Shown here: positions 2,783-62,279 of the stretch, one piece after another
How positions within the stretch are numbered: the stretch's first letter is position 1
Layout: each line of letters begins with the position of its first letter
Assembly (NCBI GenBank): GCA_046728175.1
Contig: JBKPEA010000050.1
Coordinates: 389-64,388, forward strand
Direction: 5' to 3'
DNA from: Thermodesulfobacteriota bacterium
GTDB taxonomy: Bacteria > Desulfobacterota > Binatia > Binatales > Binataceae
DNA length: 64,000 nucleotides
Program-made: the position numbers and the translations under genes
The notes under the pieces: model-generated
Database searches by the model: none
Seen by the model: only the letters and a program-made list of their open reading frames with translations
Told to the model about the DNA's origin: nothing

Positions 2783-4531
2783 CTATGGCCCCAGCATCGG
2801 CACCAGGATCCCGATGTCCGGGGTACCCCACCCGGTTGCCCCATCGTAACCCGGCTTCGCTTTGAAGCCCGGGACACCATTGAAACTGTTATTCCCTGAG
2901 GTCACGTCATGCAGTCCCGAGGACGCAGTGTTGTTCAGAGGACCCAGCGTGTAGAGTTTCGTGTTTATATTCCCCACCCGCGTCGTCCCCGCACGCTGTG
3001 CAGCGAGCGCGCTGACCCCGGCCCACACCGGTGTTCCAACGCTGGTGCCGCCCGCGATTGCCAGCTGACCGGGCGTTCCGACCGCGATGAAAAACCCGGG
3101 ATGAAGGAGAGAGGCGCCCAGCGCGATATCGGGAACGTCCCTGCGCTTGTCCTTGGGGAAAACGCCTGACTGGAAGCTGGGCTTTGCGAAGACCGAGCTT
3201 CGTCCGCCACCGCCGGCCCCGCGCTGCGACTTCGGAATCGAGGCCTTGTCGTGCCATACCGATTCGGTTGCATAGCCGACGTCATTGCCGCTGCTGTCGA
3301 AAGTGGGAGTGAATTGCGTTCCGCCCACCGCGGTGACGTGCGGGTCAGCCGCCAACTCGCTGACCCGGGGCGCGCCACTGGCAACCACACATCCGCTGCT
3401 GGTCGCTTTCAGTCCCGCCGCGCCCTCATCGCCGGTCGCCGCGAACACCGCCTGTCCCTGCGCTTCGGCCTGCGCCAGAATGGGATCGAGCGTGCCGCTA
3501 AAGAAAGCGGGACCCGCGCCACAGAATTCGAAGCTTAGGCTGATCGCACCACAAGTGTTGTCGCCCACCGCTCGAGCGAGTGCATCCAGCGTCGCATTCG
3601 CACCGGCGCCTAGGTATGCGGTGATTGGAGCGCCGGGCGCTGCGGTGTGCGCATATTCGACATCCAGATCCGATTCGAATCGAGCGTTGGGTGAACCCAT
3701 CCCCGGATTGACGCCGTCCGCGAGAACCCGCGAGGCGGTGATGGCCGGAAGGCCAAATGTCCCATTGAACAGGGCGACCGCGTCATCGTCGAAATCGGCG
3801 GTCTCAACCAGCGCGATACAATCCGCTCCCGCGCCCGTGGTCCCGGCGCTGTTGAGCCCGGTCTCGTCATAGAAGGTCCATAGGTCCTTGGGACCGAATG
3901 CGGTCGTACCGCCTTCAGTCGCCTGTGGGCTGACCTTGGCGGCGGCGGTAACCAGGTTGTTCCTGAAGCGCAGGGTGTTTCCGAGACCTCGAATCGAGCC
4001 GATGAGAGGCGCAACCGAGGCGGGCACTTCCGGGTCGTTGAGATTGGCGAAAGTCGCGCCATCGGCACTGGTTGCGATCTTTACGGCGAAGGTTTTTTCC
4101 ACCGTCGCCGCGGCCGCGGCCGCGGCGACTTCACGCCCGGGGCCAACCACCGATTCGACTGACAGGCCGCGGCTGGTCAACCATCGCTCGATCGCGGCAC
4201 GGTCATCGGCCGTCGGGCCGAAGCGATCGCTAAATTCTTCCGGGGTAAGCCAGCGATGGTACTGGGATGAGGACGGGTCCTGTTGTTGCGCGATCAGCTC
4301 TTCCAACTGGTCCCGATTGCGAAGCGCCAGCGTGATCGTGATGCGGAGCTGCCGGTCCGCGGCTACCTCGCCGCCGGTGAGCTCGGCGGCTTCGTCCGGA
4401 TGATTGCCCAGAATCGTAACCCTGGAATCGGCCGGGAAAACGGGGGCAGCAGCGACTACGATCATCAAAACCGCTGCAGCCAATCCCGCGACGCGTTCCA
4501 ACCGGATAGTCGGGAGTACCGACGATGACAT
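2783..4531 (-). CDS. S53 family (sedolisin/kumamolisin-like) peptidase with prodomain
   Basis: Signal peptide, Pro-kumamolisin domain (QYHRWLTPEEF), ESDLDVE, ATGDEG and GGTS catalytic motifs, GYDGATGWGTP. Confidence 0.93.
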   Translation of the reverse strand: MSSSVLPTIRLERVAGLAAAVLMIVVAAAPVFPADSRVTILGNHPDEAAELTGGEVAADRQLRITITLALRNRDQLEELIAQQQDPSSSQYHRWLTPEEFSDRFGPTADDRAAIERWLTSRGLSVESVVGPGREVAAAAAAATVEKTFAVKIATSADGATFANLNDPEVPASVAPLIGSIRGLGNTLRFRNNLVTAAAKVSPQATEGGTTAFGPKDLWTFYDETGLNSAGTTGAGADCIALVETADFDDDAVALFNGTFGLPAITASRVLADGVNPGMGSPNARFESDLDVEYAHTAAPGAPITAYLGAGANATLDALARAVGDNTCGAISLSFEFCGAGPAFFSGTLDPILAQAEAQGQAVFAATGDEGAAGLKATSSGCVVASGAPRVSELAADPHVTAVGGTQFTPTFDSSGNDVGYATESVWHDKASIPKSQRGAGGGGRSSVFAKPSFQSGVFPKDKRRDVPDIALGASLLHPGFFIAVGTPGQLAIAGGTSVGTPVWAGVSALAAQRAGTTRVGNINTKLYTLGPLNNTASSGLHDVTSGNNSFNGVPGFKAKPGYDGATGWGTPDIGILVPMLGP

Positions 4532-4689
4532 AGTTCCCCCTGCCCGGGCATTTTCGAGGTCTCAACCGGATCACGCAAGACCTTTTTTCTGACCTTAACT
4601 GCTCCAAGCGCGCGCTTCCTCAAATTTCATCCGCCACCGGCTGCTGCTTGGCCTGACCCCCCACGATTTCCCGCGCAGCTTCGGATGCG

Positions 4690-4718
4690 TTGACAGACGA
4701 ACGATTGCGCCGGAAAAT
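4690..4718 (+). promoter_or_regulatory. Putative sigma70 promoter of rpoZ
   Basis: TTGACA-17nt-GAAAAT, 9 nt before the ATG, no Shine-Dalgarno sequence. Confidence 0.5.
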
Positions 4719-4727
4719 TAGCGGATA

Positions 4728-4925
4728 ATGGCGAGAATTACCGTAGAAGATTGCCTGGAGCAGATCCCCAACCGCTTCGAACTGGTCCTCGGAGCCGCCA
4801 AGCGTGCCAAGCAGTTGCTCAAAGGCGCGCGGCCACTAGTGGAAAGTGATAATAAGGAAGTCGTGACGGCACTTCGCGAGATCGCCGCCACCAAGGTCAC
4901 GCTCGAAGAGCCGCCGGAGAAGTAG
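4728..4925 (+). CDS. rpoZ: RNA polymerase omega subunit
   Basis: [28 protein letters not shown] signature. Confidence 0.97.
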
Positions 4926-5027
4926 TTCTCCGAAGTCCGCCGCGATTGGTGTCTCACTCCGGGCGGATTGCGGGTATCCGCGCGCCCGATCTTCACGCGG
5001 CGTCCTTTATCCTGTGCATCCGGTCCC

Positions 5028-6125
5028 ATGGCCCGCAAAGCTGGCAATACTCCGTCTAGGCCGCCGCATGGATCACGGCGCCGATCTTCGCCCCGCGCGG
5101 CCGACCCCCCGCTCGTGGTCCACGATTCAATCGGCGACGAGGAAGCTCCGGTGGTCGAGATCGAAGAGTTTCACCCCGTCGAGAACGACGAGGCCGAGGC
5201 TCCCGACCCTGAATACAAGCTTCGGCAGCCCGCCGACGAGACCAGAAAGGAGTCCTCCGAGACGGGCGAGGGCGGCGCGCTTGTTCCGCTCGATCCATTG
5301 GGCCGTTATCTGTCCGAGATTCGGCGCTTTCCCCTGCTTACTCGCGAGGAGGAAGCCGAGATCGCCAAGCGCTACCATCGACATCACGATCGCGAGGATG
5401 CGTTCCGGCTGGTAACCGCGAACCTGCGGCTGGTCGTCAAGATCGCGCTCGAATTCGCCCGCGCCTCCAGGAACGTGCTGGACCTCATCCAGGAAGGCAA
5501 CGTCGGGCTGATGGAAGCGATCAAGAATTTTGACCCGTACCGCGGCATCCGCTTCCCTTCCTACGCGGTATGGTGGGTGCGCGCCTACATCTATCGTTAC
5601 CTGATTAACAACTGGCGGCTGGTGAAGATCGGAACCACCCAGGCGCAGCGCAAGCTCTTCTTCAATCTCCGCAAGGAGAGCGAGCGACTCGAAGCACAGG
5701 GCTTCCGGCCCGAACCCAAGCTGCTCGCGCAACGGATGGGGGTGAAGGAAAGCGAAGTGCGCGAGATGCAGGATCGGATGTCACAGAGCGAGGTTTCGCT
5801 GGATCAGCCGAGCGGGCAGTCCGAAGATGTGGCGCTGGTGGAGGTGCTTCCGGACGATTCGCACAATCCCGAGGAGGCCGCCGCCGCGGGCGAATGGCGA
5901 AACTTCGCGCGCGAGCGCGTTGAGGAATTCGCGGCGACCCTCAAGGACAAGGAACTTGAGATTTTCCATCAGCGACTTCTGACCGAAGACCCCGCGACCC
6001 TGCAGGAGATCGGGGAACGCTTTGGAATCAGCCGCGAGCGGGTGCGGCAAATCGAGACCCGGCTCAAGAATCGACTGCGCGACTTCATCCGCGGAAAAGC
6101 GGCCGAGCGCGACGAAGCCAGCTAG
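5028..6125 (+). CDS. rpoH: Sigma-32/RpoH-like sigma-70 family factor
   Basis: DLIQEGNVGLM, RpoH box QRKLFFNLR, TLQEIG..SRERVRQIE. Confidence 0.88.
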   Translation: MARKAGNTPSRPPHGSRRRSSPRAADPPLVVHDSIGDEEAPVVEIEEFHPVENDEAEAPDPEYKLRQPADETRKESSETGEGGALVPLDPLGRYLSEIRRFPLLTREEEAEIAKRYHRHHDREDAFRLVTANLRLVVKIALEFARASRNVLDLIQEGNVGLMEAIKNFDPYRGIRFPSYAVWWVRAYIYRYLINNWRLVKIGTTQAQRKLFFNLRKESERLEAQGFRPEPKLLAQRMGVKESEVREMQDRMSQSEVSLDQPSGQSEDVALVEVLPDDSHNPEEAAAAGEWRNFARERVEEFAATLKDKELEIFHQRLLTEDPATLQEIGERFGISRERVRQIETRLKNRLRDFIRGKAAERDEAS

Positions 6126-6218
6126 GAAGCGTCTGCTATCGCGCTCGCCCCGGCACCACGATCTGCCTAATCCGGGAATTCTGCGCTTGCCTTGCTGCCC
6201 TCCTTGGGTAACGGGATA

Positions 6219-6962
6219 ATGCCCAAATCGATGCGAGACCGTACGTGCGCGCTGGTCGTGATCGGAAACGAGATCCTGTCCGGCAAGGTGCAGGACTCAA
6301 ATGCGTACTTCGCCGCGTGCGAGTTGCGCAAGCTTGGGGTATCGCTCCAGCGCGTGACCGTGATTCCGGATGAGGTTCCCAGAATCGCCGAAGAAGTCGC
6401 TTACTGCTCCGCGCACTTTGACATCGTCATTACCTCCGGCGGTGTCGGACCGACTCACGATGATCTCACCATGGAGGGCGTCGCCGCGGCCTTCGGGCGC
6501 AGGATCGTGGTTCACCCCGAGCTGGAGCGGCTCATCCGGAGTCACTTCGTCGGGCGCGTGAATGCCGCGGGGCTCAAGATGGCGGAGGTACCCGAGGGCG
6601 TCATCCTGAACGATGAGGGTGACATCCGGTTTCCTACGGTTCAGATCGAAAATGTCTACGTGCTGCCCGGCATCCCGCAACTCTTTGAAGCGAAGTTAAA
6701 TGCGCTTAAGCCGCGCTTCACCTCAGACCCGTACTATCTCCGCACCATCTATACGAGCGCGACCGAGGGCGTCATCGCCGAGCATCTGGATGCCTGCCTG
6801 GCCGAGTTTCCGGAACTGATGCTGGGCTCCTATCCGCGCATCGGCAATCCCGAGTACCGCGTCAAGCTCACGCTCGAGTCCAAGAATGCCGAGTATCTCG
6901 ACCGCGCATTTCATCGTCTTTTGACGCTTATCCCGAAAGACATGGTCGTTAAAATCGAGTAA
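6219..6962 (+). CDS. CinA-like molybdopterin-binding domain protein
   Basis: IGNEILSGKVQDSN and SGGVGPTHDDLT motifs. Confidence 0.9.
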   Translation: MPKSMRDRTCALVVIGNEILSGKVQDSNAYFAACELRKLGVSLQRVTVIPDEVPRIAEEVAYCSAHFDIVITSGGVGPTHDDLTMEGVAAAFGRRIVVHPELERLIRSHFVGRVNAAGLKMAEVPEGVILNDEGDIRFPTVQIENVYVLPGIPQLFEAKLNALKPRFTSDPYYLRTIYTSATEGVIAEHLDACLAEFPELMLGSYPRIGNPEYRVKLTLESKNAEYLDRAFHRLLTLIPKDMVVKIE

Positions 6963-6995
6963 GATTCGATTCAAGAGGGTTGAGGAGGAAGAGAC

Positions 6996-7580
6996 ATGGG
7001 CAAGATTCGTTCACAGTTTCTGGCGACATCGCTCGCCGCGGCTCTGGTAATTTTCGTTACCGGTAGTGCTCTGGCGCAGGATGCATCGGCTCCGCCAGCG
7101 CAGGCTTCTTCAGCTGCCACCACGATGCAGGTGCAGCAGCCCCAGAGCGGCGTGAACTGGCCCGGAGCGGGGTACGGCGCAGCGGCACTCTTCGGCAATT
7201 TACTTTACTTCCCGGCGAAGTTGGTTTACGCGATCCTCGGGACAATCGTGGGCGGAGGAACCTATCTGGTAACCGCGGGCAACGCTCAGGCTGCGAACAC
7301 GGTATTTCGCAGCGCGCTGGGCGGAGACTACGTGTTAACCCCGCAAATGGTTGCGGGCCAGCAGCCAATCAATTTCAGCGGTCCGACGGAAACACCGCCG
7401 CCGAACACGAACGAGGCCTCGGCCAGCAGCACCGTCCAGCCGATCACTCCACTGCCACCTCCCACATCAGCACCAGCGGCCGCGCCTTCAGTCACCAACG
7501 GAGCAGTGCAGCCGATGGACGCGGGTAGCGGGCCGGTGCATTCAAAGGCCGACTCGACCTCGGCCAGAAGCATCGAGTAG
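6996..7580 (+). CDS. Exported/membrane hypothetical protein
   Basis: GAGGAGG RBS, signal peptide (ALA|Q), hydrophobic core, Pro/Thr-rich tail. Confidence 0.8.
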   Translation: MGKIRSQFLATSLAAALVIFVTGSALAQDASAPPAQASSAATTMQVQQPQSGVNWPGAGYGAAALFGNLLYFPAKLVYAILGTIVGGGTYLVTAGNAQAANTVFRSALGGDYVLTPQMVAGQQPINFSGPTETPPPNTNEASASSTVQPITPLPPPTSAPAAAPSVTNGAVQPMDAGSGPVHSKADSTSARSIE

Positions 7581-7636
7581 AGGCGACCCGCGGTGGAGCC
7601 TGCGTTAGCCGCGGGCTCTGCCGAATTCGTAACCAC

Positions 7637-7987
7637 ATGAAGAAAGCACGCTTTTTCTGGAAATCGACCTGAACTACCTGTCGCAACGCAAGAAGTTTCT
7701 TGCGCGATGATCTCAAGGTCGAATTTGAAGAGCGCGACTACGCCAAAAACCCGCTCGATTTGACCGAACTCAAGGACCTGTTCAAGGGACGCGACCCGCG
7801 CGATTTTCTCAGCACGAAGAGCCCTGCTTTCAAAGCGCTGGGCCTGCGGGGTAAGACGCTCACCGCCGAGCAGGCCCTCAAGCTGATGGCGCAGGAACCT
7901 AATTTGATCCGGCGCCCGCTGGTAGTCGTCGGACGCGAGATAATCGCGGGGCTAGAGCGCGACCGCCTCAAACAAGCACTGCGCTGA
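7637..7987 (+). CDS. ArsC/Spx/MgsR family protein, probable selenoprotein (UxxC)
   Basis: ATG 7637 is in frame with the 7700 ORF: MKKARFFWKST-TGA(7670-7672)-TTCRNAR...; C-terminal PNLIRRP family motif. Confidence 0.88.
7681..7707 (+). promoter_or_regulatory. Putative bacterial SECIS hairpin
   Basis: CGCAAGA-AGTT-TCTTGCG stem-loop (extended by TCG/CGA); apical loop starts 21 nt after the UGA. Confidence 0.7.
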
Positions 7988-8083
7988 CTCTCTCTTCGTT
8001 ACGCTTAGATTTTTTGTCTCGAGCTAACTCCCTTGGACAAAGGCAGGGAATCGGTGCTAGCACCCGAGCAACCGAGGTGTCCC

Positions 8084-9508
8084 ATGGGTTTCTCCGAGGA
8101 ACTGTTTTTCGCACCGGCGGGCCGGCTCATCGCGATGCTCAAGGCGCGAGAGATCTCCGCGACCGAAATCACCGAACAATTCTTCAAACGAATCGACGCG
8201 CTCAATCCCGGGTTGAACGCCGTCATCACGCTGGTGAAAGAGCGCGCTACACGTGAGGCCGCCGACTCCGACCGGCATCTCGCGCGCAGCGGCGAAGCCC
8301 GGCCGCTCGAAGGTCTGCCCGTCACCATCAAGGATTCGATCATTACCGAAGGCGTGCGCTCGACCTGGGGAATGAAGATTTTCGAAGACTATGTCTCCGA
8401 CACCGATGCGCCCGTGGTCGCACGCTTGCGCGCGGCGGGTGCGGTCGTGCTCGGCAAGACCAACACCCCGGAAATGACCTTCGATTACGATTGCGACAAT
8501 CCCCTGTTCGGACCGACCAGGAATCCGTGGAATCGCGAACGCGTGCCGGGTGGATCGAGCGGGGGTGAAGCTGCGGCATTGGCGGCAGGCATGTCGCCGT
8601 TGGGACTGGGCTCCGACTACGGCGGATCGATTCGGGTGCCCGCCCACTTCTGCGGCATCGTCGGACTAAAGCCGAGTTGGGGGACGATTCCGTTGGCCGG
8701 ACATATGTCGCCCGGGCCGGCAGCGCCACCGGGAATTTCCCACATGGCGACACTCGGGCCGATGGCCCGATACGTCGACGACCTGACACTCGCCTACAAC
8801 GTCATCAAGGGAGCGCATTGGAGCGCGCCCTACACCGCGCCGACTCCGGAAGCCCACCCGGAGCGCATCGAGGTGAAGAAGCTGCGATGCGCGTTCTTCA
8901 CTGCGGGAGGCGGCGAGGTACCAGTGGCGCGCGACATCCGGGCGGCTACCGAACGAGCGGCCAAGGCCCTGGCCAGGTCCGGACTGAGCGTGGAGGAGTC
9001 GCAGCCACCGATCCAGGATGGGGCACGCCTGTGGATGGCATATGCGACGGCCGATGGAGGTACGCTGCTGCGGCAGACGCTGGGCGACAAGATCAATCTT
9101 TCGCGCGAGCGCCTGCGCAACGGATTGCTCGCGCCTTCAGAGCCCAAGTCAGCCGCCGAATTCTTTCTCGCCTCGATCGCGCGCGATACTTTCCGCGTCG
9201 AGCTGGCCAAGTTCATGGAGCGCTATCCCATCCTGATCTGTCCGCCGTTCTGCGCCACCGCATTCGCGGAAGGCAAGGAAACCGTGGACATCGATGGCAG
9301 CGAATACCCGCTGTTCAGGGCGAACTGGCCAGTCCTGTTCGGAAACTGCGCGGGCTTGCCGGGAGCGGTGGTGCCGGCAGGCCGCGACCATCAGGGACTT
9401 CCGACCGGAGTTCAGATAGTGGGTCGCGCCTTCGCCGAAGAGGAGGTGCTGGCGGTCGCGAAACTGCTGGAACAGGAACTGGGCGGCTTCCAACCCCCGC
9501 CAGTCTAA
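8084..9508 (+). CDS. Amidase signature family protein
   Basis: GLPVTIKD, GKTNTPE, GGSSGG and GSDYGGSIRVPA motifs. Confidence 0.93.
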   Translation: MGFSEELFFAPAGRLIAMLKAREISATEITEQFFKRIDALNPGLNAVITLVKERATREAADSDRHLARSGEARPLEGLPVTIKDSIITEGVRSTWGMKIFEDYVSDTDAPVVARLRAAGAVVLGKTNTPEMTFDYDCDNPLFGPTRNPWNRERVPGGSSGGEAAALAAGMSPLGLGSDYGGSIRVPAHFCGIVGLKPSWGTIPLAGHMSPGPAAPPGISHMATLGPMARYVDDLTLAYNVIKGAHWSAPYTAPTPEAHPERIEVKKLRCAFFTAGGGEVPVARDIRAATERAAKALARSGLSVEESQPPIQDGARLWMAYATADGGTLLRQTLGDKINLSRERLRNGLLAPSEPKSAAEFFLASIARDTFRVELAKFMERYPILICPPFCATAFAEGKETVDIDGSEYPLFRANWPVLFGNCAGLPGAVVPAGRDHQGLPTGVQIVGRAFAEEEVLAVAKLLEQELGGFQPPPV

Positions 9509-9600
9509 GTGAAAATCGAATCCGGCACGGACCCACACCGCGGCCACACCTGGCGGCTGGGGCGGCCGGATTGAGCGTCAGCGCCCTGCGGTTCTCTTTG

Positions 9601-10599
9601 CTAGGCGAGCTTTTCGACCTTCTCGTTGCCGTCACGATTGCCGTCGGACGTCGCTCGTTCCACGCGCTCGCCGCGGGAGCTGCGCTCGGCCCGCTCCGAA
9701 CGGCCCGGCTTGACGGCGCCATTGTTGTGGGTCAGCACCTCGATAAACTTGCGCACCGCCGGCGATAGTTCGCGGCCGCGCTTGTAGATGATGGCCAACG
9801 GCCGCGTAAAGGTTCCTTCCGAGAATTCGAGCATCTTGAGGGTGCCGCGCGAAACTTCGTTCTCCACCGTCATCCGCGGAACGATCGCGCATCCGAGACC
9901 AATCTCGACGGCGCGCTTGATGGTCTCGATATTGTCGAACTCGAGCACGTACTGCGGCTTGACGCCGTGGTCGCGCAGAATGCGATCCGATGCTTTGCGG
10001 GTGGCGATGTCACGCTCGTAGCCGACGAACTTCTGCCCCGAGAGCGCGCCCACGCTGACCTTGTTGTGTTTCGCGAGCGCGCTGTCGGGGGGCACTACCA
10101 GCACCAGCTCATCATGCCTGAACGCGATGGACACGATCTGGCTGCGCTTGGCGGGATAGGCCACCACGCCCAGATCGATCTTGCCCTCCACCAGGTCTTC
10201 GTAAATTTTGTTCGAGCGCAGGTATTCGAGATGGACGTTGACGGCCGGATAATTGCGCAGGAACTCGGTCAGGTAGGGCGGGAGCTCGTGGAGTCCGACG
10301 CTGTAGACGGTGCCAACCCGAATCGAGCCTGCCACCACCGACCCGATCTCGCGCAGGCGATTTTCGAGCTCCATGAAGCGGCGCACGATCTCTTTGCTGG
10401 CGGTGTAGAGAATCTGTCCCGCGGGAGTTGGTTTGACTCCAGCACGCCCGCGTTCTATCAATCGGCAATCGTACTTTTCCTCCAGACTCCGGACCTGCTG
10501 GCTGACCGCCGACTGGGTTACAAAGTTTTGCGACGCGGCATAAGAAAAGCTTCCACTTTCGATTATGTCGCAGAAAACCTTTAACGTTTCTATGTGCAT
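9601..10599 (-). CDS. LysR family transcriptional regulator
   Basis: N-terminal HTH (SFSYAA..TQSAVSQQVRSLE) and substrate-binding domain. Confidence 0.93.
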   Translation of the reverse strand: MHIETLKVFCDIIESGSFSYAASQNFVTQSAVSQQVRSLEEKYDCRLIERGRAGVKPTPAGQILYTASKEIVRRFMELENRLREIGSVVAGSIRVGTVYSVGLHELPPYLTEFLRNYPAVNVHLEYLRSNKIYEDLVEGKIDLGVVAYPAKRSQIVSIAFRHDELVLVVPPDSALAKHNKVSVGALSGQKFVGYERDIATRKASDRILRDHGVKPQYVLEFDNIETIKRAVEIGLGCAIVPRMTVENEVSRGTLKMLEFSEGTFTRPLAIIYKRGRELSPAVRKFIEVLTHNNGAVKPGRSERAERSSRGERVERATSDGNRDGNEKVEKLA

Positions 10600-62056: not shown

Positions 62057-62279
62057 GTTTGAGTAGGAATCATGGTTGCCCATAATCCCCTCAACAGATC
62101 CGGACGAGCGGTATTGCCGCATCCGGCTCTTGCCTCAGGTAATGACGCCGAGACCCCTGTCAACGCTTCGACGCTTCCCTTGCGAGAAGCTCCGCATGAC
62201 TCAGGGCCGTCATGGGTCGCTGGCCCTTTAACGCGTGACTCTTTCATTCACAACACCTCGCCGGTTTAGCCCGGCGCAC
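62057..62279 (-). mobile_element. Internally deleted (ORF-less) group II intron
   Basis: 5' GTGCG end; domain V GAGCCGGATGCGG..CCGCTCGTCCGGATCT; domain VI with bulged A, ending in AC; last IEP codons (LGVIT*) retained. Confidence 0.88.

Follow-up and report, generated by a model that had tools for sequence, protein, structure and literature searches.

A probable UxxC-type selenoprotein gene of the ArsC/Spx family, annotated from a false TTG start, in a Desulfobacterota genome

Is the 95-residue open reading frame (ORF) that begins with a TTG codon at position 7700 of the DNA analysed here a complete gene, or is it the greater part of a longer selenoprotein gene whose selenocysteine (Sec) codon has been passed over by annotation? 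The locus lies in a stretch of 64,000 nucleotides (hereafter the window, meaning the whole stretch) of contig JBKPEA010000050.1 from a Thermodesulfobacteriota bacterium (assembly GCA_046728175.1). An initial annotation, made from the letters of the window, had proposed that positions 7637..7987 encode a hidden selenoprotein of the ArsC/Spx family with a UxxC motif (U standing for Sec) and a bacterial SECIS-type hairpin (SECIS, selenocysteine insertion sequence). In this study, the proposal was supported by a match to the Pfam ArsC family, by a column shared by Sec and Cys among orthologs and by the presence of sel genes in the same genome. With a probability of roughly 0.9, we consider 7637..7987 to be a real selenoprotein gene, the insertion of Sec itself being predicted from sequence comparison.

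The frame opens at ATG 7637-7639 and reads MKKARFFWKST-TGA-TTCRNARSFLR..., with a single internal TGA that is in frame with the ORF called from position 7700, as had been claimed. The elements of the gene are the following:

7637..7987, plus strand: predicted ArsC/Spx-like selenoprotein coding sequence of 116 residues, with an ATG start, an in-frame TGA at codon 12 and a terminal TGA.
7670..7672, plus strand: UGA codon of the predicted Sec residue U12, which opens the U-T-T-C redox motif; Cys in 8 orthologs, TGA in 15.
7679..7681, plus strand: TGT codon of Cys15, the resolving residue of UxxC; an invariant column, aligned with Cys13 of Spx.
7687..7704, plus strand: SECIS-type hairpin (RNAfold), within codons 17-23 (N-A-R-S-F-L-R).
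7700..7702, plus strand: TTG codon of Leu22, within the hairpin's 3' arm; false start of the 95-residue ORF (7700..7987 in the ORF list).
7985..7987, plus strand: terminal TGA, read as stop; the orthologs end within 0-3 residues of the same point.

For the family searches, Cys was used in place of Sec. The protein matched Pfam ArsC (PF03960) over residues 7-111 with 59.8 bits against a cut-off of 24 (E = 3.3e-16). The best NCBIfam match was TIGR01617 (Spx/MgsR family), which at 71.2 bits was narrowly under its cut-off of 75.05. Scores below threshold were also obtained for the Spx models NF002459 (Spx proper; 56.9 vs. 123 bits), NF009210 (35.8 vs. 159) and NF009885 (31.1 vs. 152), and for TIGR00014, the model of glutaredoxin-type arsenate reductases (46.3 vs. 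106.05). NF041106 is a curated, selenoprotein-aware model (ArsC family (seleno)protein), yet the window protein reached only 23.2 bits against its cut-off of 85 and is not a member; this shortfall probably explains why annotation pipelines miss the TGA at this locus. The six best solved relatives were all Spx structures (E = 4e-13 to 1e-11), and the TGA was aligned with Cys10 of Bacillus subtilis Spx (PDB chain 3gfk_A), which places it at the first Cys of the CxxC motif of the family, where the initial annotation had put it. In an alignment of 51 sequences, residues S10, T11, C15, R16 and R19 were invariant and the column of U12 was invariant as C/U. Further conserved residues were D53-P54-R55, R93-P94 (invariant) and R108 (nearly invariant).

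Comparative evidence came from the orthologs. We searched 41 genomes, comprising the genome of the window and 40 relatives, in all six frames, and identified strong orthologs in 23 of them. These are the window gene itself, 21 copies in genomes of the same family and a single copy in a genome of a different family within the class. Their alignments span residues 1-116 of the window protein. One in-frame TGA was present in 15 of the 23, representing at least 14 genera, and none in the other eight. By tblastn, every TGA was found opposite query residue 12, and the remaining eight orthologs have TGC there. An alignment with PF03960 homologs had been suggested, with the expectation that Cys would occupy the TGA column and that the TGA would be kept in relatives, and both were observed. 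One of the Cys copies (G022) is from an unpublished genome, without which the ratio of TGA to Cys forms is 15:7. The cinA-like gene and the 194-residue ORF upstream are conserved in 21 of the 23 loci, and these genes are therefore positional orthologs. A wider survey of 165 genomes of the family, queried with a naturally occurring Cys ortholog, detected the gene in 142 genomes (144 rows), with one in-frame TGA in 105 (107 rows) and none in 37; when six unpublished genomes were omitted, 102 genomes with a TGA and 34 without were left, of 136.

In a tree of 22 orthologs, from which one frameshifted copy was omitted, about three Sec/Cys changes were needed; only one of the 19 inner branches was well supported, and the tree did not give the direction of change. 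The omitted copy is the Cys-form ortholog of genome G013 (L043:1501-1837), which is split by a frameshift after approximately residue 53 and represents either a pseudogene or an assembly error. SelA scored above its cut-off in all 24 family relatives examined, in those with Sec forms and those with Cys forms alike. The switch between Sec and Cys is therefore an event at the level of this gene and not a loss of the Sec trait.

We then considered the segment upstream of the TTG, which public annotation drops. Ratios of nonsynonymous to synonymous differences (pN/pS) were calculated for 14 Sec forms of the family and seven Cys forms, with the distant ortholog L042 and the frameshifted L043 omitted and codon 12 excluded. 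For codons 2-21, pN/pS was 0.265 in the Sec forms and 0.240 in the Cys forms, and for the rest of the gene it was 0.383. On these values, codons 2-21 are under purifying selection and appear to be translated. Among the best 120 database clusters, 73 were N-terminally truncated, and 66 of these were exactly 95 residues long and started at Leu22; the other 47 were full length and contained CxxC. Judged from their length and start, the truncated clusters would be TGA forms. We conclude that the 95-residue database ORF is an annotation artefact.

The hairpin downstream of the UGA has a 5' arm CGCAAGA (7687-7693), a loop AGTT (7694-7697) and a 3' arm TCTTGCG (7698-7704), which form 7 base pairs. 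Its loop begins 21 nucleotides past the UGA and has G as its second base, in agreement with the geometry described in the initial annotation. A hairpin of this type downstream of UGA is described in the relevant section of a recent review (PMC9312934) and in the Figure 4 legend of an earlier study (PMC1794560). For the 15 TGA forms and eight Cys forms, the pairs of the 7-bp register were tallied on alignments without gaps. Paired cells made up 98 of 105 (93.3%) in the TGA forms vs. 40 of 56 (71.4%) in the Cys forms (34 of 49 without G022). Pair 28-37 was formed in 13 of 15 TGA forms vs. none of eight Cys forms, and a perfect 7-bp stem was present in 10/15 vs. 0/8. The median local minimum free energy was -9.3 kcal/mol in TGA forms vs. 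-6.3 kcal/mol in Cys forms, with a one-sided Mann-Whitney p = 0.002 that overstates the case since the relatives are not independent.

Some hairpin was folded in all 15 TGA forms and was degraded in the Cys forms. The five TGA forms with an imperfect register still fold, two into an 8-bp stem, one into 6 bp with a 6-nt loop, one into 6 bp and one with a single mismatch. In G012 and G010 the 8-bp stem is shifted one base on and the AGUU loop is kept despite several changes on both arms, and G034, with 36% protein identity, retains an identical 16-nt hairpin. The loop GUU was present in 15/15 TGA forms and also in 5/8 Cys forms. Three Cys forms carry remnant hairpins; the Figure 4 legend of PMC1794560 describes Cys genes derived from Sec genes with such remnants. 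An additional lower stem (7680-7684/7704-7708) was examined and rejected as part of the element, as it is unconserved in relatives.

Codon choice along the stem is more telling for the hairpin than strict covariation. The stem is written GCA-AGA-AGT-TTC-TTG, and according to a reference of 1,848 codons from five neighbouring genes, GCA accounts for 9% of Ala codons, AGA for 2% of Arg, AGT for 4% of Ser and TTG for 8% of Leu. At the corresponding positions, GCG, CGC/CGG and CTG predominate in the Cys forms.

The initial annotation had also implied that the genome encodes selA, selB, selC and selD. Three of these genes were identified, all above their cut-offs: selA (581.7 bits), selB (352 bits) and selD (383 bits). 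The search of the own assembly did not recover the fourth, selC, which specifies tRNA-Sec. Two of the genes adjoin each other on contig C3 of this assembly (G000):

G000:C3:50044-50970, minus strand: selD, with an in-frame TGA in an AAG-U-AGK motif; adjoins selB.
G000:C3:51065-52957: selB, 352 bits; next to selD.

This selD is a selenoprotein gene itself. By our reading of the fold, a comparable stem-loop, whose loop opens with G, follows its UGA.

Several observations weigh against a selenoprotein at this locus. When the sequence was folded singly, the 61-nt segment gave z = -1.21, and 29 of 200 shuffled sequences folded at least as well. Covariation in the fixed register is thin, with changes on both sides in one of seven pairs (2 cells), and the conserved amino acids dictate some of the pairing. 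No Rfam family was detected at the hairpin, either at the gathering threshold over the whole window or with E up to 10 over 7600-7800. In the 105 family genomes counted as TGA forms, the position of the TGA was inspected by eye in 15 loci, and the other rows were counted from the in-frame-stop column. Finally, no complete tRNA-Sec was found in the own assembly by Rfam RF01852, by ARAGORN or by blastn with the genes of five relatives. As to the Rfam result, bacterial SECIS elements are, to our knowledge, poorly covered in that database. As to the fold, the hairpin goes beyond chance because of the comparative evidence, namely the TGA column in 15 of 23 orthologs, the contrast in pairing between TGA and Cys forms and the four rare codons.

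The missing tRNA-Sec deserves closer consideration. The best RF01852 match in the assembly, 43.1 bits against a gathering score of 47, is a tRNA-Leu. The assembly is 94.4% complete in 168 contigs, and the 42 tRNA calls of ARAGORN lack tRNA-SeC, tRNA-Asn and tRNA-Ile; with tRNA-Asn and tRNA-Ile also absent, the tRNA set is visibly incomplete. A tRNA-Sec scoring 70-74 bits was found in 5/5 relatives checked. Moreover, blastn detected a 34-36-nt 3' fragment of tRNA-Sec at C55:57825-57859, 44 nt from a contig end. The flank of this fragment matches a degenerate partial copy in G005, a genome of the same genus, in which a complete tRNA-Sec follows at a distance of about 1 kb. Most simply, selC would lie in an assembly gap beyond the end of C55. 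Comparison of contigs from the three soil runs that hold the window (X1-X3) with the selC region of the relative (L055:400-1700) was uninformative, as two 35-nt pieces of X1 were placed and none of X2 or X3. A 97-nt 'tRNA-Glu(ttc)' call of ARAGORN on L020 (= G000:C19:10980-11076) was examined as a miscalled tRNA-Sec and rejected for its poor cloverleaf; it is probably a false positive.

At the end of contig C55 (G000:C55:57763-57903), the 3' third of tRNA-Sec is thus present in degenerate form, and in G005 the corresponding partial copy and the complete gene lie about 1 kb apart (L055:437-536 / 1497-1592). The partial copy resembles what an element would leave behind after integration at selC, and such a scar may be the reason for the assembly break.

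Could the TGA be a simple nonsense mutation or a sequencing error in a pseudogene, or could the real product be the 95-residue protein translated from TTG 7700, with the upstream frame as a short leader peptide ending at the TGA? The missing tRNA-Sec and the frameshifted copy in G013 agree with a pseudogene, and it had been stated in advance that a genome without Sec machinery, together with close orthologs that all have TGC or TGT, would speak for it. Neither was observed: 15 of the 23 orthologs, spread over at least 14 genera, share the TGA column, one in-frame TGA is found in 105 of the 142 family genomes with the gene, and selA, selB and selD are present. Purifying selection on both sides of the TGA and a hairpin maintained against codon bias also contradict gene decay, and we regard the nonsense mutation or sequencing error as already refuted in practice by the TGA counts in orthologs together with pN/pS. 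The shorter product has public gene calls in its favour, which give 95 residues, as well as the 73 truncated clusters among the best 120 and a mechanical ORF list that also starts at TTG 7700. Such a protein, however, would be deprived of strand 1 and of the entire redox motif of the ArsC fold, which the Pfam match covers from residue 7 to residue 111. Codons 2-21, with a pN/pS of 0.265, evolve as coding sequence of the same protein and can be matched one by one to the N-terminal residues of the Cys forms, and the TTG is simply Leu22 within a conserved F-L-R motif. It is extremely improbable that translation of this gene begins there.

For the selenoprotein gene at 7637..7987, we propose a mechanism in which translation would start at ATG 7637 and SelB carrying Sec-tRNA(Sec) would be held at UGA 7670-7672 by the hairpin 7687-7704, so that Sec would be inserted. 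The predicted protein has 116 residues and a thioredoxin fold, belongs to the ArsC/Spx superfamily and carries its redox centre, U12-x-x-C15, where helix 1 begins. If the CxxC motifs of Spx and other thioredoxin-fold proteins are a guide, U12 and C15 may cycle between the selenol/thiol and selenenylsulfide states. Given that it is a selenoprotein, its function is probably that of a redox-active selenoprotein, and its role may be that of a small oxidoreductase or redox sensor. The initial annotation had named it an arsenate reductase or redox regulator of 116 residues. Its size, Sec and membership of the ArsC/Spx family held; as to the choice between the two functions, neither the glutaredoxin-type ArsC model nor the Spx models reached their cut-offs.

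One alternative is a true Spx-type regulator. Spx regulators have been described from Gram-positive bacteria, which does not favour it here. On the other hand, TIGR01617 is the best NCBIfam match (71.2 vs. 75.05 bits), the six best solved relatives are Spx proteins in which C10/C13 are aligned with U12/C15, and a gene of the sigma-70 family is located 1.5 kb upstream on the same strand. The C10-C13 disulfide is needed for positive control by Spx, according to the relevant passages of PMC2801614. The same passages report that Spx G52 is 'absolutely required' for binding the RNA polymerase alpha subunit's C-terminal domain, and that R60 and K62 are needed for activation. Aligned by phmmer, G52 lies opposite Pro54, an invariant residue of the D-P-R motif (a tentative call, as the alignment is gapped beside G52), K62 lies opposite the invariant Pro63, and R60 opposite Lys61 of the window protein. 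The Spx models NF002459 (56.9 vs. 123) and NF009210 (35.8 vs. 159) were far under their cut-offs, and the protein has 116 residues vs. 131 in Spx, with no C-terminal extension. Taken together, a genuine Spx regulator is unlikely.

The other alternative is a glutaredoxin-coupled arsenate reductase in which Sec replaces the catalytic Cys. It is favoured by the Pfam ArsC membership, by homologs that carry database names such as 'arsenate reductase family protein' and by the invariant Arg93-Pro94 and nearly invariant Arg108. These residues may match part of the R773 ArsC arginine triad, and D53-P54-R55, R93-P94 and R108 together hint at an ArsC-like anion-binding site. However, TIGR00014 reached only 46.3 bits vs. 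106.05, no ars genes are present among the six neighbours, and the UxxC motif resembles Spx and not the single-Cys form of glutaredoxin-type ArsC. In addition, the same genome holds on contig C22 a much closer ArsC-type UxxS paralog, with 101.3 bits. An arsenate reductase is quite improbable on this evidence, and a redox-active selenoprotein with a thioredoxin fold is the reading that we prefer.

The paralog just mentioned is a second ArsC-family selenoprotein candidate of the same genome, outside the window (L090:1020-1367 = G000:C22:26019-26366, plus strand, 116 residues). Its TGA occupies the catalytic column of the motif H-N-P-G-U-G-N-S-R (UxxS) and is followed by a GC-rich hairpin. It falls just short of the TIGR00014 arsC cut-off of 106.05, and at least nine relatives have the same 104-residue truncated frame. 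Its four neighbouring ORFs lack a Pfam family and show no ars context. As judged from these sequences, the genome would carry both types of ArsC selenoprotein, UxxC and UxxS, the UxxS copy being a candidate.

The six neighbours of the ArsC/Spx-like gene encode a sigma factor, a CinA-like protein, an unknown protein, an amidase, a LysR regulator and an acyl-CoA dehydrogenase. Those upstream are:

6996..7580, plus strand: protein of 194 residues with a hydrophobic N-terminus and a Pro/Ala/Ser-rich tail; no Pfam family; directly upstream, a conserved syntenic partner.
6192..6962, plus strand: CinA-like / MoCF-domain gene (Pfam PF00994, PF24102); two genes upstream, syntenic.
4968-6125, plus strand: sigma-70-family gene with regions 1.2, 2, 3 and 4; about 1.5 kb upstream of the ArsC/Spx-like gene.

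A promoter and terminator scan of 4500-9700 gave counts equal to those of shuffled sequence and does not inform on operon structure. Elsewhere in the window, a group II intron domain was found at 62125-62242 on the minus strand (Rfam RF02005, 76.4 bits vs. gathering 49), the sole Rfam match in the window at the gathering threshold.

The kind of selenoprotein found here is already known, and the window gene adds a member to it. In the relevant part of the survey called Global Ocean Sampling (GOS), two ArsC selenoprotein families were reported, a UxxS family (type 1) and a UxxC family (type 2); the latter, 'Arsenate reductase 2', was assigned to cd03032 and comprised 42 Sec sequences and 238 Cys homologs (Zhang and Gladyshev, 2008; PMC2398784). 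A list in a 2022 review (PMC9312934) gives the UxxC type as 'arsenate reductase-like protein', citing the GOS paper. Like the window protein, the GOS UxxC family has an ArsC-family thioredoxin fold, Sec as the first residue of UxxC and many Cys homologs. In the Conserved Domain Database (CDD), cd03032 is presumably the Spx subgroup. The GOS sequences came from marine metagenome reads, whereas the window gene belongs to a soil clade, probably Binataceae to judge from close homologs named Candidatus Binataceae / Binatus, and the two were compared by description only. Other ArsC-like selenoproteins named in the part of PMC1794560 concerned are the 'ArsC-like' protein of Desulfotalea psychrophila and the 'distant ArsC homolog' of Desulfuromonas acetoxidans. 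Together with GOS 'Arsenate reductase (ArsC) 1', these belong to the same superfamily and have Sec at the same structural position, but they are UxxS proteins similar to glutaredoxin-type ArsC, whereas the window gene has UxxC. Among solved structures, the best relative is B. subtilis Spx (PDB 1z3e, 3gfk, 6ghb; E = 4e-13, residues 7-114). U12/C15 falls on its C10-x-x-C13 redox switch and both proteins share the R-P motif (R93-P94 in the window protein). The window protein is unlike Spx in having Sec for Cys10, Pro at the positions of G52 and K62 and no C-terminal extension. What is described here is the use of Sec by the majority of a family (105/142 genomes) and the false TTG start inside the SECIS. 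A literature search identified no paper combining 'Binataceae' with 'selenoprotein'.

The main value of the finding is the correction of annotation. The redox centre is absent from the deposited truncated proteins, and the error recurs at scale; it also illustrates a general trap for gene callers, in which a rare TTG that is kept for the SECIS stem is mistaken for a start codon. The orthologs form a natural series, in both Sec and Cys forms, whose SECIS hairpins range from intact through shifted to decaying, and should be useful for studying the exchange between Sec and Cys and the requirements of SelB recognition. It is conceivable, though doubtful, that the protein is a Sec-containing Spx-type switch, a redox sensor working through a selenenylsulfide and binding to RNA polymerase so as to govern a stress regulon of Binataceae. 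If so, a selenoprotein would regulate transcription instead of catalysing a reaction, the reactivity of the sensor would be tuned by Sec, and the Sec and Cys forms that occur naturally in sister species would offer ready-made variants for comparison. For the organisms themselves, the gene extends the selenoproteome of a little-studied soil lineage.

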